Positions 1 through 15,337 of a DNA stretch of 64,000 nucleotides are shown one piece after another (within the stretch, counting starts at the first letter, position 1; every line of letters begins with the position of its first letter). The stretch lies in contig JAJVII010000014.1 of NCBI GenBank assembly GCA_022072085.1, positions 67,182-131,181 of the forward strand, written 5' to 3'. Position numbers and translations under genes: made by a program. Source of the DNA: Phycisphaerae bacterium. Its GTDB lineage: Bacteria > Planctomycetota > Phycisphaerae > JAJVII01. Under the pieces are notes generated by a model. The model ran no database searches, was not told where the DNA came from, and worked only from the letters and a program-made list of their open reading frames with translations.

Positions 1-1
1 C

Positions 2-643
2 CTGGCTGAGCGGCTCTACCTGCCGCAGATCCTCGGCGGGCTGTGGGTGACGCTGCGCCACGTCTTCAAGCGGAAGATCACCGTCCAGTATCCCGAGCAG
101 CGCCGGTCGATGTATCGCGACAATTATCGCGGCGTGCACCGGCTGAACAAAGACGCCCAGGGCCGCGTCAAGTGCGTCGCCTGCTTCATGTGCGAGACGG
201 CCTGCCCGGCCCACTGCATCCACATCGTCGGGGCCGAGTCCCCCTGGCCCGACCGCGAAAAGTACCCCGTCCGGTTTGACATCGACGAGCTGCGCTGCAT
301 CTACTGCGGCATGTGCGAGGAGGCCTGCCCCGTCGACGCGATCGAGCTGACCCCGCTGCACGACATGGTCGGCCAGTCGCGCGCCGAGATGGTCTTCGAC
401 AAGGAGAAACTGCTCGGCGTCTTCGACCAGACCCGCGACCTCAAGCCGCCCAAGAACCCGCGGATCGTCGGCTACGCCATCGACAACCCCGACTACCAGC
501 TCGGCGAAGGCCCCGGGCGCGTGCCGCTCACCCCTCCGCTATCGCCCAAGAGCAGGGGTCAGGGGTCAGGGGGCAGGGGCCAGTCGGAATCCGTCCCGGC
601 CCCCGACCCCCGAGCCCTGCCCCCCGGGAAGGAGAGCCGATGA
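2..643 (+). CDS. nuoI: NADH-quinone oxidoreductase subunit I (5' end outside window)
   Basis: Frame is open from the window edge (LAERLYLPQILGGLWVTLRHVFK...). Two CxxCxxCxxxCP 4Fe-4S ferredoxin motifs (CVACFMCETACP, CIYCGMCEEACP). Followed by nuoJ-K-L-M-N. Stop TGA at 641-643. Confidence 0.9.
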   Translation: MAERLYLPQILGGLWVTLRHVFKRKITVQYPEQRRSMYRDNYRGVHRLNKDAQGRVKCVACFMCETACPAHCIHIVGAESPWPDREKYPVRFDIDELRCIYCGMCEEACPVDAIELTPLHDMVGQSRAEMVFDKEKLLGVFDQTRDLKPPKNPRIVGYAIDNPDYQLGEGPGRVPLTPPLSPKSRGQGSGGRGQSESVPAPDPRALPPGKESR

Positions 644-1551
644 TCGCCTCCTCCCTGATCTTCTATGTCCTGGCAGCGCTGGGGGCCCTGAGCGTCTACT
701 GCCTCATGCCGTCAGCCGGCTATCGCCTCACGCGCGGGCGGCGGGCGCTGGGCACGATCCTGGGCGCCGCCGCCCTGGCCGGCCTGATCGTCTGGCTCAT
801 CGGCCTGCGGCAGGTGAAGGCCCTCATGCCGGCCGACGAGCCGCTTGTCGGGCCCTTCTTCTACCTCTTTGCCGCGGTCGCCATCGCGTCGGCGGTCCGC
901 GTCGTTGTCCACCCCAGGCCGGTCTACTCAGCGCTCTACTTTGTGCTGACGGTGCTGGCGGTCGCGGGCGTGCTGCTGCTGGCCGGCGGGGAGTTCCTGG
1001 CCATCGTGCTGATCATCATCTACGCCGGGGCGATCATGGTGACCTACGTCTTCGTCATCATGTTGGCCCAGCAGGCCCACAGCGGCGACCTGGCCGGGTC
1101 GGCCAGCTATGACGTGCGGACCCGCCCGGCGTTTGTGCCCCTGCTGCTGGGTTTCCTGCTGCTGGCGGCCCTGGGCGGTCCCCTGAGCAGCCGAGCCAAC
1201 TGGCCCAAGCCGGAGTCGCCCGCCAGTGTGAACGCCGCCCCCGCCTTGGCCAAGCCCCTGATCGAAGATCAGGGGGCCGCCTCCGACGCTGCGGGCCCCG
1301 TGATGACCGCCGCTCCGCAGGGCAACGGCCCTGATACTGACGCGCCTGCCCCCGGCAGCATCGAGAGCATTGGCGAGGAACTGATGCACCGCCACGTGCT
1401 GGCGATCGAGCTGGCCGGCGTGCTGCTGCTGGTGGCGATCGTCGGTGCGGTGGCGCTGGCCAGGCGGCGCGTCGAGCCTGCGGACCTGCTCGTCGGCCCG
1501 ATCCCCGATCCCCGATCTCCGGCCCCCGGCAAGGAGGCCGCCCATGGCTAG
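640..1551 (+). CDS. nuoJ: NADH-quinone oxidoreductase subunit J
   Basis: ATG at 640 overlaps the nuoI stop (ATGA) and is preceded by GGAGAG. Hydrophobic multi-TM product (MIASSLIFYVLAALGALSVY...). Position between nuoI and nuoK. The ORF-track start at 313 is an upstream in-frame extension overlapping nuoI. Confidence 0.85.
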   Translation: MIASSLIFYVLAALGALSVYCLMPSAGYRLTRGRRALGTILGAAALAGLIVWLIGLRQVKALMPADEPLVGPFFYLFAAVAIASAVRVVVHPRPVYSALYFVLTVLAVAGVLLLAGGEFLAIVLIIIYAGAIMVTYVFVIMLAQQAHSGDLAGSASYDVRTRPAFVPLLLGFLLLAALGGPLSSRANWPKPESPASVNAAPALAKPLIEDQGAASDAAGPVMTAAPQGNGPDTDAPAPGSIESIGEELMHRHVLAIELAGVLLLVAIVGAVALARRRVEPADLLVGPIPDPRSPAPGKEAAHG

Positions 1552-1858
1552 CACGATCGGATTCGTTCACCTGCTGGTGCTGGGCTCGGCGCTGTTCGTG
1601 ACCGGGCTGGCGGGTTTCCTGGCCCGGCGGAACCTGATCCTCATGTTCCTGGCCACCGAGGTGATGTTCCAGGGCATCGTGGTGACGGCCGTCGCGTTCG
1701 GGCGGTATCACGGCCAGCTGTCTGGGCAGGCGTTCGCCCTGTTCCTGCTGATCGTCGCGGCGGTGGAGGCGGCGCTTGGCCTGGGCCTGGTGGTGCTGAT
1801 GTTCCGCCGCAGCGGCAGCCTGGACGCCGAGGCCTGGCGGACGATGCGGGAAGAATGA
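1544..1858 (+). CDS. nuoK: NADH-quinone oxidoreductase subunit K
   Basis: ATG at 1544 preceded by AAGGAGG (1531-1537). About 104-aa three-helix membrane protein (MASTIGFVHLLVLGSALFVTGLAGF...LATEVMFQG). Overlaps the nuoJ 3' end by 8 bp. Confidence 0.9.
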   Translation: MASTIGFVHLLVLGSALFVTGLAGFLARRNLILMFLATEVMFQGIVVTAVAFGRYHGQLSGQAFALFLLIVAAVEAALGLGLVVLMFRRSGSLDAEAWRTMREE

Positions 1859-1865
1859 TTCAACC

Positions 1866-1965
1866 GCAGAGACGCGAAAGACGCAAAGAGATGGAGAAGA
1901 AATTGGGTTTCAGGCGGAGATCAACAGAATCCTTTCTTCTTTGCGATCTTTGCGCCTTTGCGGTG
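1866..1965 (+). repeat. Imperfect inverted repeat (hairpin) in the nuoK-nuoL intergenic region
   Basis: Left arm about 1874-1902 (gcgaaagacgcaaagagatggagaagaaa) is approximately complementary to the right arm about 1933-1962 (tttcttctttgcgatctttgcgcctttgcg), roughly 70% with bulges. GC lower than flanks. Ends about 14 nt before the nuoL RBS. Confidence 0.5.
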
Positions 1966-1986
1966 AAGTCTTCTTAGAGGAGCGAC

Positions 1987-3864
1987 GTGAGCGATAGCCT
2001 GATCATCCTGGCGATTCCCGGCTGTGCCCTGGCAGCAGCGATGCTGATCGCCCTGCTGGGGCCCAGGCTGCTGCGCGGGCAGAGCCACTGGGTGGCGATC
2101 GCCGGGGTGGCCGGCGCGGTCGCGGCGGCGGCCCACCTGCTATATGACGCCGTTCCCGGCCTGGGCGAGGGCGGCCGGATCGCCGGCACGCTCTACCGCT
2201 GGTTCAGCGGCGACGGATTCACTGCCCGCATCGGCTACCTCTACGACCACCTGGCCGCGATCATGCTGGTCACGGTGACGGGGGTTTCGCTCTGCGTGGT
2301 CCTCTACAGCCGCGGCTACATGAAGGGCCATCGAGGCTACCCGCGCTTCTTCACCTACATCTGCCTGTTCGTCTTCTCGATGTGCACGCTGGTGCTGGCG
2401 GACAACTTCCTGCTGCTCTACCTCGGCTGGGAGGCGGTCGGCCTGTGCAGCTACCTGCTGATCGGCTTCTACTACGAGCGCCCGACCGCGTCGGCGGCCG
2501 CCCGCAAGGCGTTCGTGGTCAACCGCGTGGGCGACTTCGGCTTCGGCCTGGGCGTGCTGATGATCTGGCTGACCTTCGGCACGCTGGACTACGGGCAGGT
2601 CTTCGCCCAGGTTCCCGGCGCGTCGGCGGGGGCGCTGACGGCGATCGCCCTGCTGCTGCTGTGCGGCGCGGTGGGCAAGAGCGCCCAGCTCCCGCTGCAC
2701 GTCTGGCTGCCCGACGCGATGGAAGGCCCGTCCCCCGTGTCGGCGCTGATCCACGCCGCGACGATGGTGACCGCGGGCGTCTACATGGTCGCCCGGTCGA
2801 TGCCCATCTTCGCCCACGCCCCCGGCGTGCTGGCGGTCGTCGCGATCATCGGGGCGGCCACCGCCCTGTTCGCCGCGACCATCGCCCTGGTCAACAACGA
2901 CCTGAAGCGCGTGCTGGCCTACTCGACGATCTCGCAGCTCGGCTACATGTTCCTGGGCCTGGGCGCCGGGGCCGCGGGGGCAGCCGTCTTCCACCTGTTC
3001 ACCCACGCCTTCTTCAAGGCCCTGCTGTTCCTGGGCGCCGGCGTCGTGATGCACGCGATGGCCGACGTGCTGGACATCCGCCGCATGAGCGGACTGGCCC
3101 GCCGCCTGCCGATCACCGCGGTCGCGTTCTTCGCCGCCTGCCTGGCGCTGTCGGGCATCCCGGGGACCGCGGGGTTCTTCAGCAAGGACCAGATTCTCGC
3201 CGCGGCGTTCACCTCCCCGGGCCTGGGCCGCCTGGGCCCGGCGCTCGGCTGGGTCGGCCTGGTTACCGCGGGCCTGACGGCGTTCTACACGTTCCGGCTG
3301 TTCATGCGGGTCTTCGCCGGCCCGGACGTGCTGCCCGAGGAGACGCACGGCCACGTGCACAAGCCCAGCCCGTGGATGTGGCTGGTGCTGGTCGCGCTGG
3401 CGATACCGAGCATCGGCGCCGGCTACGTCGGCGGGTGGCTGCTGCACACGCTCGGCCTGGCCGGTCTGGCCGAGGCCCATGCCGAGCCGCACTGGCTGCT
3501 GTGGACCAGCGGCGTGGTCGCGGTCGGCTCGGCGTTCCTGGCGGTGCTGCTCTACGGCCCGGCCCGCGACTGGACGCTGGCGACCCGCGTCGACCAGACG
3601 GCCTTCTACGACTTCGTGAGCAACAAGTATTTCATAGACGAGCTGTACGACGCGGTCTTCGTCCGCCCGGCCCGGGCGCTGGGGCGGCTGTGCACGATGA
3701 TCGACGACCGCGTCATTGACAACCTCCTGCTGGGCGTCACGTGGGCCCCGCGGGGGATCGGCCGGGGGCTGCGCGCCGTGCAGCGCGGCAGCCTGGGGGC
3801 GTACGCGATGATCTTCGCCTTCGGCGCGGTCCTGCTGATGGCGGTGCTGTGGCTGCTGACGTAA
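1987..3864 (+). CDS. nuoL: NADH-quinone oxidoreductase subunit L
   Basis: GTG start at 1987 preceded by GAGGAG (1976-1981). 625-aa antiporter-like subunit with LYLGWEAVGLCSYLLIGFYYERP...FVVNRVGDFGFGLG signature region. Confidence 0.9.
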   Translation: MSDSLIILAIPGCALAAAMLIALLGPRLLRGQSHWVAIAGVAGAVAAAAHLLYDAVPGLGEGGRIAGTLYRWFSGDGFTARIGYLYDHLAAIMLVTVTGVSLCVVLYSRGYMKGHRGYPRFFTYICLFVFSMCTLVLADNFLLLYLGWEAVGLCSYLLIGFYYERPTASAAARKAFVVNRVGDFGFGLGVLMIWLTFGTLDYGQVFAQVPGASAGALTAIALLLLCGAVGKSAQLPLHVWLPDAMEGPSPVSALIHAATMVTAGVYMVARSMPIFAHAPGVLAVVAIIGAATALFAATIALVNNDLKRVLAYSTISQLGYMFLGLGAGAAGAAVFHLFTHAFFKALLFLGAGVVMHAMADVLDIRRMSGLARRLPITAVAFFAACLALSGIPGTAGFFSKDQILAAAFTSPGLGRLGPALGWVGLVTAGLTAFYTFRLFMRVFAGPDVLPEETHGHVHKPSPWMWLVLVALAIPSIGAGYVGGWLLHTLGLAGLAEAHAEPHWLLWTSGVVAVGSAFLAVLLYGPARDWTLATRVDQTAFYDFVSNKYFIDELYDAVFVRPARALGRLCTMIDDRVIDNLLLGVTWAPRGIGRGLRAVQRGSLGAYAMIFAFGAVLLMAVLWLLT

Positions 3865-3866
3865 GA

Positions 3867-3977
3867 GAACGCAGAGTGACAGAGGCGCAGAGGAAAGGCA
3901 GAGTCGGACTTGATTTGTTCTAAGAACAGGACTCCCCTCTGTGAGCCTCTGTCCCGCTCTGTCCCTCTGCGTTGTTC
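3867..3977 (+). repeat. Imperfect inverted repeat (hairpin) in the nuoL-nuoM intergenic region
   Basis: Left arm gaacgcagagtgacagaggcgcagagg... (3867-3903) against the reverse complement of 3932-3977 (gaacaacgcagagggacagagcgggacagagg...). Shares the cgcagag core with the nuoK-L element. Confidence 0.5.
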
Positions 3978-3992
3978 CGGGATTCTGAACGA

Positions 3993-5837
3993 ATGGATGC
4001 GACGCTCGCGACAACCTGGATGACCTCGGCGACGGCCGGCTGGGCGATGCTTGCCCTGATCGGCCTGCCGCTGCTGGGCGTAGCCCTGATCGCGCTGGCG
4101 TCGATTGGGCGCGAACGGAGCGACCTGCCGGGCGGCGAGGACGCCGCGTCCGGGCGGCGCGTGCCGTTCGCGATTGCGCTGGCGACCAGCCTGGTCGTGC
4201 TGCTGCTGACGGCGGCGCTGGTGGCGGCCCACCTGTGCGACCCGAAGACGCTGTCGGGCAGCCACGAGTTTGCCGTCTGCTGGTTCGTCGGCGGCGGGCT
4301 CTACAGTTCGCTCAGCCTGTCGGTCGACGGCATCAGCGTCTGGCTGATCGCCCTGACCGCGGTGCTGATGCCGCTGGCCCTGATGGGGAGTTGGCACTCG
4401 ATCCGCCGACAGTGCGGGGTCTACTACGGTCTGATGATGCTGCTGCACGCCGCGATGCTGGGCGTGTTCCTCGTGCGCGATCTGCTGTGGTTCTACATCT
4501 TCTTCGAGTTCACGCTGATCCCGCTGTTTTTCCTCATCAGCCTGTGGGGCGGCTCGCAGCGCCGCCGGGCGGCCTACAAGTTCTTCGTCTACACGCTCGC
4601 CGGTTCGATGCTGACGCTGGCCGGCGTGCTCTACCTGGGCGTCAAGGCCGGTTCGTTCGACTTCAGGCTGGTCCGCCTCACGGCGTCGAGCCTGCCGCTG
4701 CGAGAGCAGGTGATCCTGTTCCTGGCGTTCTTCGCGGGGTTCGCGATCAAGGTTCCGCTGTTCCCGTTCCATACCTGGCTGCCGTTGGCCCACACCGAGG
4801 CCCCGACCGCCGGCTCGGTTATCCTCGCCGGCGTGCTGCTGAAGCTGGGGACCTACGGCTTCCTGCGGATCGGCATCGACTTCATGCCGGCGGCGGCGCT
4901 GGCGGTCGCACCGTGGATGGGCGGGCTCGCCGTCGCGGGCATCCTCTACGGCGCTCTGGGCGCGTGGGTGCAGAGCGACGTGAAGAAACTCGTCGCCTAC
5001 AGCTCGATCTCGCACCTGGGCTTCTGCATGTTGGGCCTGTTCGCCCTGCGGCCCGAGGCCCTCACCGGCGGCATTCTGGTGATGGTCAATCACGGCCTGA
5101 GCACCGGGGCCCTGTTCCTGGTCATCGGCATGATCTATGAACGCTACCACACGCGGCAGATGAGCGAACTGGGCGGGTTGGCCCGCCGCATGCCGGTCAT
5201 CAGCTTCTTCCTCGTGCTGTTCGCGCTCTCGTCGCTGGGCATGCCGGGCCTGAATGGCTTCGTCAGCGAGTTCCTGGTCCTGCTGGGCACGTTCGTCAGC
5301 GGCCGACCGGCCGGCGGCCTGCCGGCGACGCTGGGCATTGGCTTTGCCGCGGTGGCCGCCCTGGGCGTGATTCTGTCAGCCGTCTACCTGCTGCACATGG
5401 TCCGCCAGGTGGTCTTCGGCCAGTTGAAGGAGCCCGAGGTCCACGACGAGCCCTCGGCCCGCCTGCCGGCTGACGCGACGGGCCGCGAGTGGGCGATCAT
5501 GCTCCCGCTGGGCGTGCTGGTCGTGCTTCTGGGCGTCTGGCCGATGCCGATCACGCAGTCGATCCGCGGGCCGGTGGACGAAATCCTCAGCAACGTGGCG
5601 GCGACGCAGAAGACGCAGCCCGCCGAAAGAGCAGCGGCTGGCGCGCAGAAAGCAGGCGACGAGGAGATTTCAAATTGCGAATTGAAGATTGAAAATTGCA
5701 GATTGGGGGAAGACGGCCCGGTCGCCTCTGCCAATTTGCGGTTTGAAATTTTCAATTGTCAATTTTCAATTCCCCCTCGTCCCGCCGTTGCCGCAACCCC
5801 GCGGGCGTCCCGCATTCGAGAGGATTGCGCCCCGTGA
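3993..5837 (+). CDS. nuoM: NADH-quinone oxidoreductase subunit M, with an unusual ~80-aa C-terminal extension
   Basis: Antiporter-like subunit (FYIFFEFTLIPLFFLISLWGG...WLPLAHTEAPTAGSVILAGVLLKLG). ATG at 3993 chosen; an in-frame TTG at 3972 lies inside the upstream hairpin. Frame stays open through an AT-rich repeat region to TGA at 5835-5837, which overlaps the nuoN GTG. Confidence 0.8.
   Translation: MDATLATTWMTSATAGWAMLALIGLPLLGVALIALASIGRERSDLPGGEDAASGRRVPFAIALATSLVVLLLTAALVAAHLCDPKTLSGSHEFAVCWFVGGGLYSSLSLSVDGISVWLIALTAVLMPLALMGSWHSIRRQCGVYYGLMMLLHAAMLGVFLVRDLLWFYIFFEFTLIPLFFLISLWGGSQRRRAAYKFFVYTLAGSMLTLAGVLYLGVKAGSFDFRLVRLTASSLPLREQVILFLAFFAGFAIKVPLFPFHTWLPLAHTEAPTAGSVILAGVLLKLGTYGFLRIGIDFMPAAALAVAPWMGGLAVAGILYGALGAWVQSDVKKLVAYSSISHLGFCMLGLFALRPEALTGGILVMVNHGLSTGALFLVIGMIYERYHTRQMSELGGLARRMPVISFFLVLFALSSLGMPGLNGFVSEFLVLLGTFVSGRPAGGLPATLGIGFAAVAALGVILSAVYLLHMVRQVVFGQLKEPEVHDEPSARLPADATGREWAIMLPLGVLVVLLGVWPMPITQSIRGPVDEILSNVAATQKTQPAERAAAGAQKAGDEEISNCELKIENCRLGEDGPVASANLRFEIFNCQFSIPPRPAVAATPRASRIREDCAP
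5679..5771 (+). repeat. AT-rich inverted repeat inside the 3' end of the nuoM reading frame
   Basis: Arm 5680-5700 (aattgaagattgaaaattgca) matches the reverse complement of 5750-5771 (aattgaaaattgacaattgaaa) at 18 of 21 positions. G5 at 5705-5709 and C5 at 5772-5776. Several CAATTG-like cores. Strong local GC drop. Confidence 0.6.
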
Positions 5838-7495
5838 ACAGTGATCTGGCCAACCTGACGCTCGCGCTCCTGCCGGAGATCATCCTGCTGGTCGGGGCCT
5901 GCGTGCTGGTGCTGATCTTCAGCGGCGGACGGGCAGCCGAATCGCGGATGGGGCCGGGCTGGTTCGCGCTGGTCACGGTCGTCGCGGCGGCGGGGGCCCT
6001 GATGGCCCTGCCCACGCCGGTCTACACCGACGGGGCGATCCGGCTGACCCCCATCGCGCTGTCGGCCCGTTGGGCGTCGCTGCTGGTGGGCCTGCTGCTG
6101 ATTGCCGCCAACGGGCTGCTGCCCGAGTCGCGCCCCGGGCGCGACCTGGCCGACCGGGCCGCCCCCGAATTCTTCATGATGCTCCTGGCATCGCTGGCCG
6201 GCCTGATGGTCACCGCCGTCGCCAACGACCTGATCGTCCTGCTGCTGGCGCTGGAGCTGACCAGCGTGCCGACCTACATCGCGGTCGCGCTCAGTCGCCC
6301 GCAGGCCAAGGCCACCGAGGCCGGCGGCAAGTACTTCTTCCTCGGCGCCCTCTCGGCAGCGCTGCTGCTGATGGGGCTGGCCTGGCTCTACGGCGCGACC
6401 GGGACCACGCGGCTGGACGAGATGGTGTCGCTGCCGGTGTCGCTGTCGCCGACGGCGCTGATCGCGATGGGTCTGGCGGTGGCTGGGCTGGCGTTCAAGA
6501 TCGCCGCGTTCCCCTATCACGTCTACATCGCCGACGTCTACGAAGGGTCGGCTGCGCCCCTGGCCGGCTGGCTCGCCTTCGTGCCCAAGGCTGCGGGCCT
6601 GCTCGCGCTGGGCAAGCTGCTGGTCGCGGTCGGCGGGCCGATCCTGTTGGCCGGCGGGCAGCCGGGCGGCTGGACGACCCTGCCCGCGCTCAAGTGGACC
6701 GTCTGGGGCCTGGCGGCGGCGACCATGACCGTCGGCAACGCGATGGCCCTGTGGCAGAAGAGCATCAAGCGGATGTTGGCCTACAGTTCGGTCGCCCACA
6801 GCGGCTATCTGCTGGTCGCGCTGATGATCGTGCCGGTCGACGGCCAGGCCGTCGCGCCGGCGCTGCTGTTCTACCTGCTGGCCTACGGCGTGGCCAACCT
6901 CGGCGCGTTCATGGTGCTCAGTTCCATCCGCGCGCCGGAATCTTCTCCCTCTCCCTCTCAGGGAGAGGGCCGGGGTGAGGGTTCCCGCGGCGACCGCGAA
7001 GCCGAGACCTTCGCCGACCTCGCGGGCCTGGCCCGGCGGCGCCCGGCGCTGGCGATCGCGCTGGCCGTCTTCGGCTTCTCGCTGATGGGCCTGCCGCTGA
7101 CGATGGGTTTCGTCGGCAAGCTCTACGTCTTCAGTGCGGCGCTGCGGTCGGGCGAGTTGCTGGGGGCCGCGGGTTCGGGTTACACGCTGCTGGTGATCGT
7201 CGCCCTGGTCAACGCCGCCGTCGGCGCGGGCTACTACCTGCGGATGATCGCCGCCTGCTGGCTGGGCGAGCGCGAGGGCGACGCCGCCCCGACTGTCGAA
7301 CGCACCTCGCCGCGCGGCACGGTTTCGCACGGCGCGGTCATCGCGGTGCTGGCGGCCCTGACATTGGCGTTCGGCCTGGCCCCATTCCCCCTCCAGCGCA
7401 ACCTGGAAGAGGCCCCCCGCCGCCTGGCCCCCCCGACGACTTCGGCGTCGCAGTGTCCGGCGCCCGTAGCGGCATCCGTCGCCGACGGGCGCTGA
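5834..7495 (+). CDS. nuoN: NADH-quinone oxidoreductase subunit N
   Basis: GTG at 5834 overlaps the nuoM stop (GTGA). N-terminus VNSDLANLTLALLPEIILLVGACVLVL resembles NuoN N-termini. Multi-TM antiporter-like fold with a low-complexity insertion (SPSPSQGEGRGEGSRGD). The track start at 5756 is an upstream extension across the AT-rich region. Confidence 0.85.
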   Translation: MNSDLANLTLALLPEIILLVGACVLVLIFSGGRAAESRMGPGWFALVTVVAAAGALMALPTPVYTDGAIRLTPIALSARWASLLVGLLLIAANGLLPESRPGRDLADRAAPEFFMMLLASLAGLMVTAVANDLIVLLLALELTSVPTYIAVALSRPQAKATEAGGKYFFLGALSAALLLMGLAWLYGATGTTRLDEMVSLPVSLSPTALIAMGLAVAGLAFKIAAFPYHVYIADVYEGSAAPLAGWLAFVPKAAGLLALGKLLVAVGGPILLAGGQPGGWTTLPALKWTVWGLAAATMTVGNAMALWQKSIKRMLAYSSVAHSGYLLVALMIVPVDGQAVAPALLFYLLAYGVANLGAFMVLSSIRAPESSPSPSQGEGRGEGSRGDREAETFADLAGLARRRPALAIALAVFGFSLMGLPLTMGFVGKLYVFSAALRSGELLGAAGSGYTLLVIVALVNAAVGAGYYLRMIAACWLGEREGDAAPTVERTSPRGTVSHGAVIAVLAALTLAFGLAPFPLQRNLEEAPRRLAPPTTSASQCPAPVAASVADGR

Positions 7496-7652
7496 CGGCG
7501 GATTGCACCTTCCGCAGATTTCAGATCACAGGTAGAGTGGAACCGTTGCGTGAAACTTTTCGTCGCCGGCTGCGTCTGATCTTGCATGGACCGGCGGCGG
7601 TGCAAACGTCACTCATACCCAGGCTGGCCCGTGTTGGGGGCGCCGGGGGTAA

Positions 7653-7930
7653 GAATCTATCTCAATTGCCACGCGGGTCGCGACGACGGGTATTGCGGTC
7701 GCGGCCAAGGAGTCGAGGAGGAGTCGATACGGGACGGAGTATCGTCGACGACGAGCGACGCAGGCCGCGACCGCAAGACCCGCCGTCCCGGCGGGTTGGG
7801 CCGCAAAGGGCCCGTCTGCGGCGGCGCCGCTCCTGGACGATACTCAGTCTCGTATCGACTGCGTCGCGGCTTCTTGCATCCGGGCCCTTTGCGACCCAAC
7901 GCGATCCCGTGTGGCAATTGAGATAGATTC
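7653..7930. mobile_element. MITE-like non-autonomous element: 278 bp, 25-bp terminal inverted repeats, flanking TAA direct repeats, internally palindromic
   Basis: TIR-L 7653-7677 gaatctatctcaattgccacgcggg; reverse complement of 7906-7930 is gaatctatctcaattgccacacggg (24/25). TAA at 7650-7652 and 7931-7933. Interior shows further inverted symmetry and a central hairpin cccgccg-tcc-cggcggg (7779-7795). No transposase ORF. Confidence 0.6.
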
Positions 7931-7947
7931 TAAGGCAGGGGGCCTGA

Positions 7948-10900
7948 TTGACGATCCGGGGCGCCCTCATCGCGGGACTGCTGGCCGGCATGGCCGCGAC
8001 GGCCGTGCTGTCGGCTGGCGATGCGCCCATCCCGCCGCCGGCGTCGCCGCTCGCCGAACCCGCCCGCCGAGATGTCGTCGACGCCCTCCTGGCCCGCAGC
8101 CGCCTGCTCGGCGACGCCCGCTTCCAGATTCCCGTCGGCATCTATCGCCAGTATCTCATCGAGACGCAGCAGGCAGCCCCGCCGCCGGCTGACTTGATCC
8201 TCCCAGCGGCCCGATACGACCTGTCGGTGGACAAGGACCGCGCCGTCCGGCTGGCGGTCCGCATCGACCTGCTCGTGCTGGACGCGGACAAGGCCGCCTG
8301 GCTCGGCCTGCTCGACGCCGCGGTCGCGTGGGACGAGGTGAAGATCGACGGGCAGCCGGCGGTCATGCCCGCCCACCTGGGCCTGCTGCGGCTCGCGCCG
8401 CAGAAGGCCGGCGCCCACGTGCTGACGGCGTCGGCCCGGCTGCCGCGGTCGGCGGCCGCCGGCGGTCGGCTGGCGCTGGCGATTCCGTCCAGCGTGCAGA
8501 CGGCCGTTGCGTTCGACTCGCCCGGCGCGTGGGCGGTGTCCGCGGACGACGGTTTCGGCCGCCTGATCGGCGACGCAGCCGGCACGCGCGGGCGGCTGGC
8601 CCTGACGCCGCGGCAGAAGCTCGCGGTCGCCTGGTCGCCGCCGACCTCGGCGATGCAGCGCACGCCGCACTACATGCTCCGCGGCGACGTGGCCTGGAAC
8701 CTCGACGCCGGCGTGCAGCAGGTGACGGCCGACCTGGCGGTGACCATCGCGGCTGCGGCGTCCGACCGCGTCGTGCTGAACCTGCCGGCGGCTGCCGACC
8801 GCGTGAGCGTCACCGGCCCGGACGTGCGGCAGGCCGACGCCCGCGGCGGGCGGGCGACGGTGGACCTCCGCGGGCCGGTGCTGGGGACCACGCGGCTGAG
8901 GGTGGCCTTCGAGATGCCGGCGGCCGGCGACACCCGGACGCTGTCGGGCCTCGGGCTCGCGGACGGGCGGTGGTTCGACGGCACGCTGCTGGTGGGCAAC
9001 TCGGCCGGCGACTGCGAGGTCGTCGCCGACAAGACGGCCGGCCTGGAGGAGATCGCCCTGTCGCAGGCGCCGTCGTCCGCGGCGGCAATCCTCGCGGGCC
9101 CGGCGGTGCTGGCCTACCACATCAACGCCGGGGCCTTCTCGGCGACGGTCGAGAGCCTGACGCTCGGCGAGTTCGCCCTGCGGCAGTCCATCGCCGACCT
9201 GGCCCACTTCGAGGCGTTCGTCTCGCCCGACGGGGCGGCGCTCTGCCGGGCCCGCTACGAAATCCGCAACCGCAGCCAGCAGTTCCTCACGCTCCGCCTG
9301 CCCGCCGGGGCGACGGTGCTGGCGGTGCGGGTGAACGAGAACAGCGTGCCGCTTTCGCCGATCGCCGGCGAGGCCGGCGCCTACCGCGTCCAGCTCGAGC
9401 GTTCGACCGCGTCGGTGATCGGGCTGGTCAGTTTCCCGGTGGACGTCGCCTTCACGCAGCATGTGGAGCTGCCGCGGCCGGCCCGCCACCGGAAGGCGAC
9501 GTTGCGCGTGCCGATGCCGCGGATCGACCTGCCGATCGCCTACGCCTGGTGCGAGCTGTTCCTGCCCGGCGACCTGCGGGTGCGGACCCTCGCCGGGCCG
9601 ATGCGGCGGGTGGAGGAATACTCCAGCCAGACGGCCGGCGCGAGCCTGGACTACGGCCTGGGCACGATGGCGGCGGGCTACACGGCCGCCAACCGCCCGA
9701 CCGCCCCGGAGGTGGTCAGGCGCCCTACTGCCAACATGCCGGCCTTCGACATGGCGATCCACCGCGACCGCGGCGTCGAACTCGTGGCGCCGCCCAATGG
9801 CCCGGTGATGGAAGAGCCCAACGCCCCCCAGGTCGCTCTCCCGTCGCCGCCGGCTGTCACGCAGCCGGACCAGCCGCCGGCTACCGTGCGGGGCCAGCCG
9901 GACGGATACGCCAATCAGCAGGACCATGGCGTCCGGCTGCCCGGCGAATCGGACGTGACGCGCAACCTGGACGCCCCGCCGCCGCCGGTCCAGCCCGGCC
10001 AGCCGACGGGGGGGCCAACGACCCCCGTGCCGTCGGACACGCAGACGTTCACGAACAACAACACGCTGGACGGGCCCGGCGGCATGCAGGGGTCCCAGGC
10101 GCTGCTGGCCCGCAACTACTGGCGGGCGGGCAAGGAGGCCTACGACCGCGGCGATCTGTCCAACGCCACCGAGGCCCTGGGCAACGTGGTTCGGCTGGCC
10201 CCGCAGTCGGCGGAGGCCGACAACGCCCGTCGCCTGCTGGCCAACGCCAAGGTGCTCGAAGGCGGCTTCGAGTATGAGAGCAAGTCGCAGAAGGCGGCCG
10301 GCCTGGCGGTGCAGAAGGAGGCCGCCGTCAGCAACGCCGAGGCGTTCCAGGGCCAGGGGGAACTGCTGGAGCAGGCCAAGCAGGAGCTGCGCGAGGGCAA
10401 GGTCGCGTCAGCCAAGAGCAAGCTCCAGGCGGCCCGGTCGATGGGCCAGAAGCTCCAGACGCAGATGGGCGGCAATGCGGAACTGGATCTGCGCAACAAG
10501 TCGCTGGCGAAGTATTCCGAGGAGATCGAGAAGTCCGAGTCGGACGAAGCCAAGAAGTTGCGGATGAAGTTCGACGACCTTCGACGGTCCGGCCGATCGG
10601 AGGAGGCCTTCAGGACCGGCAAGCATCTGCTGACCCTGAACACCGCCGACGCCGACGAGGTCCGCAAGGAGATGGAAGTCCTGGCGGTGGAGTCGGCGGG
10701 CAAGAAACCGGCCACCCTTCAACAGCAGCCCTTGCCTGTGTTGATGCAGCGACATGCGGAGCCGGTCTACGAGCGGGATCTGTACTCGCCCTCCCGGCCT
10801 GAGGACCGGCGCGTGCTGGCGCCTCCGCCGATGGAGACGAATCTGACGGCCATTCGCCCGTCGCCCGACCAATCCAGCTCCCCGTTGCGAAGCGATGGCC

Positions 10901-15250: not shown

Positions 15251-15275
15251 GTTGAAGTTGAAGTTGAAGTTGAAG
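15251..15275 (+). repeat. Short tandem repeat (GTTGAA)x4
   Basis: gttgaagttgaagttgaagttgaag read directly from the sequence, in the 3' intergenic region shared by the convergent genes ending at 15225 and 15344. Confidence 0.8.
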
Positions 15276-15291
15276 ACAAAGTTGGAGCGAC

Positions 15292-15337
15292 GCGACCCGC
15301 CCGTCCGCGGCCATCCGCCGGCGGGCGGTCGCTTTTT
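15292..15337 (+). terminator. Intrinsic (Rho-independent) terminator candidate for the plus-strand gene ending at 15225
   Basis: Stem gcgacc(c)gcccg (15292-15303) pairs with cgggcggtcgc (15322-15332) with a 1-nt bulge, followed by TTTTT (15333-15337). Confidence 0.5.

Follow-up and report, generated by a model that had tools for sequence, protein, structure and literature searches.

According to Mrazek (2007), as cited in PMC4679880, the long simple-sequence repeats of prokaryotes are most often heptamers. The GGGAATC repeats of Xanthomonas and the GGGGA(C/T)T repeats of Nostoc occur in convergent (inverted) pairs, which in Xanthomonas sit between open reading frames (ORFs) that are aligned (Rehm et al. 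2015, PMC4692102), and TAACTGA direct repeats have been described from Beggiatoaceae, Cyanobacteria, and Bacteroidetes, where three units stop all three frames, so that ORFs overlap only the edge of an array (MacGregor 2015, PMC4679880). TTTTGAA heptamers have also been reported from Nostoc (Pradhan et al. preprint, bioRxiv 10.1101/2022.06.06.494920). Repetitive extragenic palindromic (REP) sequences are located chiefly downstream of genes, in gaps flanked by ORFs of tandem or convergent orientation, and in some cases furnish a stop codon; known cases also fall within ORFs (Di Nocera et al. 2013, PMC3733652), and that paper cites work on R. conorii for the Rickettsia palindromic elements (RPE) found within ORFs. 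None of the literature that we searched connects heptamer repeats with Planctomycetes. Here we describe an AT-rich island within the nuo operon of a Phycisphaerae metagenome-assembled genome, in a stretch of 64,000 nt (the window) that opens inside the operon. The island is read in frame at the 3' end of nuoM, immediately ahead of nuoN, and we conclude that it is probably a tolerated palindromic heptamer repeat that has been absorbed into a translated spacer.

The island (5665-5775) comprises 111 bp with a GC content of 41.4%, against 69.7% for the whole window, and thus matches the sharply AT-rich segment of about 110 bp to which a first-pass annotation had drawn attention. The inverted aattgaa/caattg units described there resolve into two inverted-repeat arms of 40 nt each (5667-5706 and 5731-5770), 75% complementary and built on a period of 7. 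On the plus strand, the left arm contains five tandem 7-mers (5673-5707; AATTGCG, AATTGAA, GATTGAA, AATTGCA, and GATTGGG) and the right arm contains six (5730-5771; GCCAATT, TGCGGTT, TGAAATT, TTCAATT, GTCAATT, and TTCAATT), and the two are separated by an apical region that is GC rich and contains a small hairpin of its own (5708-5729, plus strand; GGAAGACGGCCCGGTCGCCTCT). Tandem Repeats Finder reported period-7 arrays at 5681-5705 and 5747-5771, with 3.6 copies in each where five and six units can be counted by eye; ATTGAAAATTG, with at most one mismatch, occurs five times in the window, always within the island, against an expectation of 0.03. Tandem 7-nt units in three or more copies with a complementary array nearby are the hallmark of heptameric simple-sequence repeats in inverted pairs, and, as in RPE-like in-frame palindromic insertions, the nuoM frame stays open through the repeat and the NuoM core is intact. 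Structure prediction, which the annotation had proposed, returned a single long stem-loop for 5650-5790 at -60.7 kcal/mol (z, -5.8), and none of 200 shuffled sequences was as stable; the minus strand of the island folds at -51.3 kcal/mol. The predicted stem-loop occupies 5651-5789 on the plus strand, with 56 bp including eight G.U pairs, and ends some 45 to 60 nt 5' of the nuoN GTG. An outer GC clamp is formed by the pairing of GACGAGG (5658-5664) with CCTCGTC (5775-5781). The runs of five Gs (5705-5709) and five Cs (5772-5776) that were said to bracket the segment are present but do not pair with each other in the predicted fold.

The gene that accommodates this structure, nuoM, extends from 3993 to 5837 on the plus strand, with ATG 3993 as the start annotated by NCBI (MCG3178704.1, 614 aa) and an alternative in-frame start upstream, TTG 3972, that gives an ORF of 621 codons. 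Its conserved core (3993-5594, plus strand) is matched by TIGR01972 over residues 30-541 of the 621-aa ORF (498 bits) and by Pfam PF00361. The TIGR01972 match ends at residue 541 of 621, at about nucleotide 5594, and leaves a C-terminal tail without a family match, the translated spacer, of 80 codons plus TGA (5595-5837, plus strand), as long an extension past the usual C terminus as had been claimed. The TGA at 5835-5837 overlaps the GTG of nuoN at 5834-5836 to form GTGA, again in agreement with the annotation. The start of nuoN (5834-7495, plus strand) is shared by MCG3178705.1, the TIGR01770 NuoN alignment begins at residue 10 of the ORF opened by GTG 5834, and, by our reading of the sequence, a Shine-Dalgarno-like GAGAGGA (5818-5824, plus strand) lies 9 nt 5' of the GTG. 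The nuoM frame alone of the six is free of stops in 5596-5834, and segment-wise shuffles of the tail were open in 5.6% of trials. Codon-position GC (GC1/2/3) in the tail is flat (0.61/0.55/0.59, against 0.67/0.44/0.93 in the nuoM core) because the repeat dominates the tail. Translation of the tail would be expected to yield peptides such as LGEDGPVASANLR and FEIFNCQFSIPPRPAVAATPR.

Orthologs, with which the first-pass annotation had suggested a comparison, put this tail into context. Our comparison set comprised 80 Phycisphaerae/Planctomycetota nuo loci in which genes were mapped by tblastn, and across these loci the nuoM ORF continued past the end of the conserved core for between 7 and 175 codons (median, about 58). 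A tabulation of stop and start codons covered 82 loci, including the window and the near-identical L002; the nuoM stop lay no more than 20 nt from a start codon in the nuoN frame in 76 of them and no more than 13 nt away in 73, and the commonest arrangement, in 36 loci, was a 4-nt overlap of the form ATGA, GTGA, or TTGA. Stops were counted in the spacer between the NuoM core and an independently predicted nuoN start in 53 loci: the nuoM frame was open in 49 of these spacers and held 5 stops in total, compared with 84 and 98 in the other frames. The same count applied to the nuoI|J, J|K, K|L, and L|M spacers showed no avoidance. No sequence conservation was evident between the nuoM tails of the clade, which have a weak coding-like codon-position GC (0.715/0.53/0.73 for GC1/2/3), an abundance of Ala, Pro, Asp, Glu, and Arg, and 0.5% Cys. 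Palindromes or heptamer hairpins occur within open nuoM tails also in L003, L005 (where the tail has 129 codons), L016, and L045, and in L078 a hairpin of CGGTGAT units provides the nuoM stop, with the nuoN start about 110 nt downstream. A long, nonconserved, translated nuoM tail that ends at the nuoN start is thus the rule in Phycisphaerae, and at the nuoM-nuoN spacer, alone among the nuo junctions compared, stops are selected against across the clade; from this we infer, as the natural explanation, that nuoN is coupled to nuoM by termination-reinitiation. The proposal that a small palindromic element had been inserted and absorbed into the frame is upheld in part, by the match of the element to a repeat type, by the absence of the element from the closest relative, and by the open frame, and has to be corrected in two respects: hairpins with heptamer arms, built of other units, are found at other nuo junctions too, and the extension is not due to the element. 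That the element produced the tail extension was rejected on the grounds that long open nuoM tails are usual in the clade.

With a period of 7, three consecutive AATTGAA units put a TGA into every frame, and a canonical copy would therefore truncate nuoM. Between 73 and 80% of units in the repeat type carry TGA; both in-phase units of the left arm in the window are without it and have in-frame TGC where the canonical unit has TGA (5676-5678 in unit 1 and 5697-5699 in unit 4), and the in-phase unit of the right arm reads TGT at 5757-5759, whereas out-of-frame TGAs have been kept at 5683, 5690, and 5744. The three Asn-Cys dipeptides singled out by the annotation (AAT TGC at 5673-5678 and 5694-5699 and AAT TGT at 5754-5759) are consequences of this substitution of TGC or TGT for TGA in the in-phase units. 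Base 5699, now C, is predicted to pair with a right-arm G, so that the stem is preserved there too. The 5.6% openness of shuffled tails, the single open frame among six, and the loss of TGA are modest evidence when taken alone; together with the clade-wide avoidance of stops, they indicate selection for read-through.

The repeat type to which the island belongs is widespread. Metagenome contigs were searched with the pattern ATTGAAAATTG-N40-70-CAATTTTCAAT, for which abundance figures are lower bounds, and matches were obtained in at least 120 contigs, with contig GC contents of 0.32 to 0.69 and sources from soil to human gut among the matches listed, to which the counts, alignments, and flanking ORFs given below also refer. 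Thirty-four copies taken from high-GC contigs can be aligned as G(G/A)AATTGAAAATTGAAAATTGAAAATTGAAA...TTTCAATTTTCAATTTTCAATTTTCAATTCC, each arm having 4 units. They are uniform in structure: the ends are G(G/A)AATTG...CAATTCC, an ATCGGA...TCCGAT inner stem is often present, and the center, of which the apical region of the island is the counterpart, is GC rich and variable. A covariance model, R1, was built from these 34 copies and, when run against the window, matched 5671-5773 over all 92 of its 92 positions (55.9 bits; E of roughly 2.5e-7), the next best match in the 64 kb having an E value of 7.7. The annotation had proposed a search of the genome for other copies of the AT-rich unit; within the 64-kb window, none was found besides the island. 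Against 1.04 Mb of Phycisphaerae nuo loci, R1 gave no clear AATTGAA copy; its weak matches there were AT-rich heptamer hairpins in L011 and L035 and a hairpin of AAACCGG units in the nuoM tail of L045. One host contig is Acidobacteriota-like, with Thermoanaerobaculia homologues, and the AATTGAA type therefore crosses phyla. Gene calls and orientation in the metagenome loci were heuristic; of the 59 matches with ORFs on both sides, 22 were convergent, 31 tandem, and 6 divergent, which is the distribution reported for REPs (PMC3733652) and for Xanthomonas heptamers (PMC4692102). The flanking ORFs commonly stop within or next to the arms by means of the TGA of the unit. The copy in the window departs from this position to the extent that nuoM reads through the whole element, which still lies 3' of the conserved NuoM core. 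Judged on sequence and structure, the island is best described as a degenerate member of an (AATTGAA)4-loop-(TTCAATT)4 type that is normally found at the 3' ends of genes.

Other features of the metagenome copies deserve mention in their own right. A subfamily in ten loci (L084, L094, L097, L105, L137, L138, L166, L170, L197, and L202; contig GC, 0.60 to 0.68) has exactly four units per arm, a conserved inner ATCGGA...TCCGAT stem, and, within that stem, a center of 20 to 30 nt that is different in every copy. In L086, L156, and L158, AATTGAA hairpins adjoin or separate tRNA-like genes, the tRNA ends being recognized by eye.

We suggest that the element arose or landed in the one stretch of the nuo operon that is kept long and free of sequence constraint yet translated, from the end of the NuoM core to the start of nuoN. 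Ribosomes would traverse this spacer and terminate on the start codon of nuoN (GTGA), coupling the translation of nuoN to that of nuoM. The amino acids of the spacer would be unconstrained, the sole requirement being the lack of an in-frame stop, and the element would therefore be tolerated as 37 odd codons of the NuoM tail. It may have originated by slippage and palindrome homogenization or by mobilization of the REP/MITE kind (MITEs, or miniature inverted-repeat transposable elements). The hairpin is probably tolerated rather than required, and its most likely physical effect would be to present translating ribosomes with a strong mRNA stem to melt.

Comparable structures elsewhere in the operon bear on this proposal. 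Upstream of nuoM on the plus strand, nuoI extends to 643 and its TGA overlaps the ATG of nuoJ (640-1551) at 640-643; nuoK (1544-1858, ATG 1544) and nuoL (1987-3864) follow. A sibling hairpin at nuoI|nuoJ (553-626, plus strand) pairs (CAGGGGT)x4.4 with (CCCGACC)x4.6 (CAGGGGT/GACCCCC-type units), folds at -57 kcal/mol, and lies within the NuoI tail, so that it, too, is translated. The two siblings at nuoK|nuoL and nuoL|nuoM are untranslated: at 1863-1964 (plus strand; z, -4.2), GCAGAGAC/GCGAAAGAC units are paired with TCTTTGCG units, and at 3868-3973 (plus strand; -53.9 kcal/mol), CAGAGNNG (CAGAGGCG-type) units are paired with CCTCTG units. A single-arm array, (CCCGATC)x3.6, equivalent to GGGGATC on the minus strand, occupies 1497-1528 in the NuoJ tail, just 5' of nuoK ATG 1544. 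The arms of the siblings are heptameric or octameric, and each nuo junction has its own unit sequence. In the closest available relative, whose NuoM is 72% identical, the nuoM tail has about 25 codons, ends in GGTGAGTGA, and runs straight into nuoN without a hairpin at the nuoM|nuoN junction; a heptamer hairpin is present at its nuoK|L junction, with a different unit (TTCTGAT/AATCAGA). Among GTDB representative genomes, the best NuoM identity was 57 to 62%. Over all fetched loci, 14 inverted pairs were found among 90 period-7 arrays that had not been selected by the search, and none of 31 period-6 arrays formed such a pair. The idea that heptamer arrays are generally selected to carry stops as a three-frame stop cassette was not supported (50 of 90 arrays had a stop on one strand or the other, against 43.9 expected from shuffled units).

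Several further repeats were noted in the nuo region and beyond. GTAG-type REP-like perfect hairpins (GTAGGGTGGGCCGTGCCCACC... and GGGTAGGGTCCGCATTGCGGACC...) are present at nuoJ|K and nuoK|L in L032 (4438-4505) and L078 (4487-4568), and the same junctions therefore gather several unrelated types of palindromic repeat. Within nuoN, a GC-rich palindrome, CTCCCTCTCCCTCTCAGGGAGAGGGCCGGGGTGAGGG (6944-6985), is translated in frame to give SPSPSQGEGRGEG; about 17 to 18 residues are missing from that NuoN loop in relatives, L021 has a different REP-like insert, SRDRKGAV, at the site, and the sequence is a second palindromic repeat absorbed into nuo coding sequence. Downstream of nuoN, some 300 nt (7638-7945; -199 kcal/mol; z, -10.2) form an imperfect palindrome that contains nested stems, has outer arms AGAATCTATCTCAATTGCCACGCGGG and CCCGTGTGGCAATTGAGATAGATTCT and no Rfam match, and resembles a MITE or a long hairpin element. 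In a convergent intergenic region (15251-15275), a hexamer array, (GTTGAA)x4.2, is perfect and directly precedes a GC-rich terminator-like hairpin with a T run at about 15290-15335.

A number of observations weigh against a tolerated, absorbed repeat as we have framed it. The R1 match has a rough E value and lies in low-complexity sequence, and no second copy built of AATTGAA units was found in the 64-kb window, so that dispersal within this genome is unproven. The tails of the window and of the nearest relative are too diverged for DNA alignment, and the ends of an insertion are not definable. We see no target-site duplication, the island being flanked by sequences that are themselves inverted (GACGAGG/CCTCGTC) and not by a direct repeat; a MITE would combine such a duplication with terminal inverted repeats, as which the arms could act. 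Some features hint at function. The stereotyped 4-unit arms of the metagenome copies are unlike the outcome of free slippage. The sense strand is 9.4 kcal/mol more stable than the antisense strand, with eight G.U pairs as opposed to three on the minus strand. Finally, four full hairpins and one single-arm array are concentrated at five nuo junctions within 7.5 kb, and the other 56 kb contains none of the heptamer type, the remaining intergenic regions having ordinary GC-rich terminator-like hairpins. For the origin only, the alternative to slippage and palindrome homogenization is a recently transposed, nonautonomous REP- or MITE-like element whose transposase is encoded elsewhere. The stereotyped 4-unit copies in unrelated contigs, with their GGAATTG...CAATTCC termini and ATCGGA...TCCGAT stem, argue for a defined element, and mobilization is favored by the presence of two copies on each of the contigs L101, L105, L115, and L155 and by a distribution that spans phyla yet misses the nearest relative. 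Transposition nevertheless seems to us a tentative and rather unlikely explanation, given the lack of a target-site duplication, of a second copy in the 64 kb, and of any transposase gene seen nearby; moreover, the unit sequence differs at each nuo junction, contigs with AATTGAA hairpins also hold inverted heptamer pairs of many other units, which points to a generic generating mechanism, and slippage of heptamers is a known general bias.

A further question, raised by the annotation as its alternative in terms of nuoM-nuoN coupling, is whether the hairpin is itself useful as RNA. The 56-bp stem would then block mRNA decay, be processed in the manner of an RNase III site, or make ribosomes pause, and so tune nuoM-nuoN coupling or segmental mRNA stability, and the siblings would act alike. 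The stem is very stable, the bias toward the sense strand noted above is shared by eight of nine clear junction hairpins, such hairpins occupy four of five nuo junctions, with a single-arm array at the fifth and none in the other intergenic regions of the window, strong hairpins of various repeat types recur at the nuo junctions of some relatives, and for one stop-removing change, A to C at 5699, the opposite arm has a G with which the new base can pair. The element is, however, not conserved, being absent from the nuoM|nuoN junction of the nearest relative, and folds with z below -3 were found in just 4 of 57 nuoM|nuoN and 5 of 28 nuoK|nuoL regions of relatives. Sense and antisense stabilities at nuoM|nuoN were equal (26 versus 31), and AATTGAA copies in tandem contexts showed no sense bias (14 versus 17; G.U pairs, 71 versus 96), although the latter is a weak test that depends on a crude ORF heuristic. 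The stem is also part of a translated region, in which passing ribosomes would hold it open, and ends at least some 45 nt before the GTG. Rfam 15 gave no match at an E value of 1 or below in 5000-6500 and none above the gathering score across the whole window, and a scan of 1-8200 for intrinsic terminators gave no terminator-like plus-strand site at any nuo junction. On balance, we consider a functional intercistronic RNA, the foremost rival of our interpretation, unlikely. A bolder proposal goes further: (AATTGAA)4-variable center-(TTCAATT)4 would be an undescribed cross-phylum element with fixed termini and arm length that serves as a symmetric insulator at gene ends, with TGA in all frames in both directions and a long stem; heptamer-arm hairpins with interchangeable units would be a class of deliberate intercistronic RNA or DNA signals, which this lineage would employ at almost all of its nuo junctions; and conversion of TGA to TGC or TGT would have disarmed the copy at nuoM|nuoN to keep coupling. 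We regard this as distinctly doubtful. It is very improbable that the tail does not truly belong to NuoM, noncoding DNA having been fused to the frame through a recent frameshift or through an error of sequencing or assembly. Flat codon-position GC and the roughly 6% of shuffled tails that are open by chance would be compatible with such an accident, which the annotation had named as a possible refutation. However, Logan assembly SRR29092744, an independent assembly, has one single nucleotide polymorphism (at 4414) relative to the window in 3972 bp and agrees with it throughout the tail, which is therefore not an assembly or sequencing error; the frame is open to the nuoN start in 49 of 53 related genomes, specifically at this junction, and the exact stop/start overlap recurs in 36 other loci. 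More improbable still, to the point of being scarcely credible, is a function for the tail peptide itself, for example, as a Cys motif (NC...NC...NC...C) for metals or disulfides: the four Cys in 80 tail residues do exceed the Cys content of clade tails, but these codons are explained by the DNA repeat through TGA to TGC or TGT changes at in-phase units, the tails of the clade are without sequence conservation, the nearest relative is without the segment, and codon-position GC is flat.

The interpretation that we favor, a palindromic heptamer repeat tolerated in a translated spacer, has consequences for annotation and for further work. The Cys-containing NuoM tail should be regarded as repeat-derived filler and not as a domain, and AT-rich islands of this sort in high-GC Planctomycetota should be read as palindromic heptamer repeats and not as foreign genes. 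The junction-specific stop-free spacer makes translational coupling of nuoN to nuoM in Phycisphaerae directly testable. Hairpins with arms of tandem heptamers constitute a recognizable structural class that crosses phyla, for the study of which the AATTGAA type, given its abundance in metagenome contigs, offers a convenient handle.

Among described systems, the heptamers of Rehm and coworkers are similar in many respects: both consist of tandem 7-nt units, often about four per array, with arrays on opposite strands that are able to form a stem-loop, and the described repeats are likewise enriched between co-oriented ORFs and near stop codons, are transcribed, and vary in presence and length among relatives. 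The array in the nuoJ tail of the window, GGGGATC on the minus strand, is of the Xanthomonas GGGNATC type. The island differs in its AT-rich AATTGAA unit, which therefore has no G-quadruplex potential, in its planctomycetal host, in the use of a different unit at each junction in place of one unit genome-wide, and in the location of a copy inside a translated region. The TAACTGA and TTTTGAA repeats resemble it as intergenic heptamer arrays that are patchily distributed across phyla and have stop-containing units, and AATTGAA copies likewise end flanking ORFs; those repeats, however, form mainly direct arrays just 5' of start codons, whereas the present ones are palindromic pairs mostly at the 3' ends of genes, and the element in the window differs further in having lost its in-frame stops. 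With REPs and RPEs the island shares the character of a short palindrome that is sometimes in frame within genes that stay functional, but its arms are tandem heptamers and not a unique palindrome, there is no GTAG tag, and no gene for a REP-associated tyrosine transposase was seen in the 64-kb window; GACG (5658-5661) and CGTC (5778-5781) at the base of the stem are not adjacent to the heptamer arms and may be coincidental.

Translational coupling through overlapping stop and start codons of the ATGA or GTGA form is established in bacterial operons. The nuoM-nuoN junction resembles these cases in that the nuoM stop overlaps the nuoN start, which is the dominant arrangement in the clade, and is unlike them in that the overlap is preceded by a long, variable, nonconserved, stop-free translated spacer; we found no description of such a spacer ahead of a coupled start in the literature searched. 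Set beside the repeats discussed above, the element in nuoM is a tidy case of a known phenomenon and not a new kind of system.

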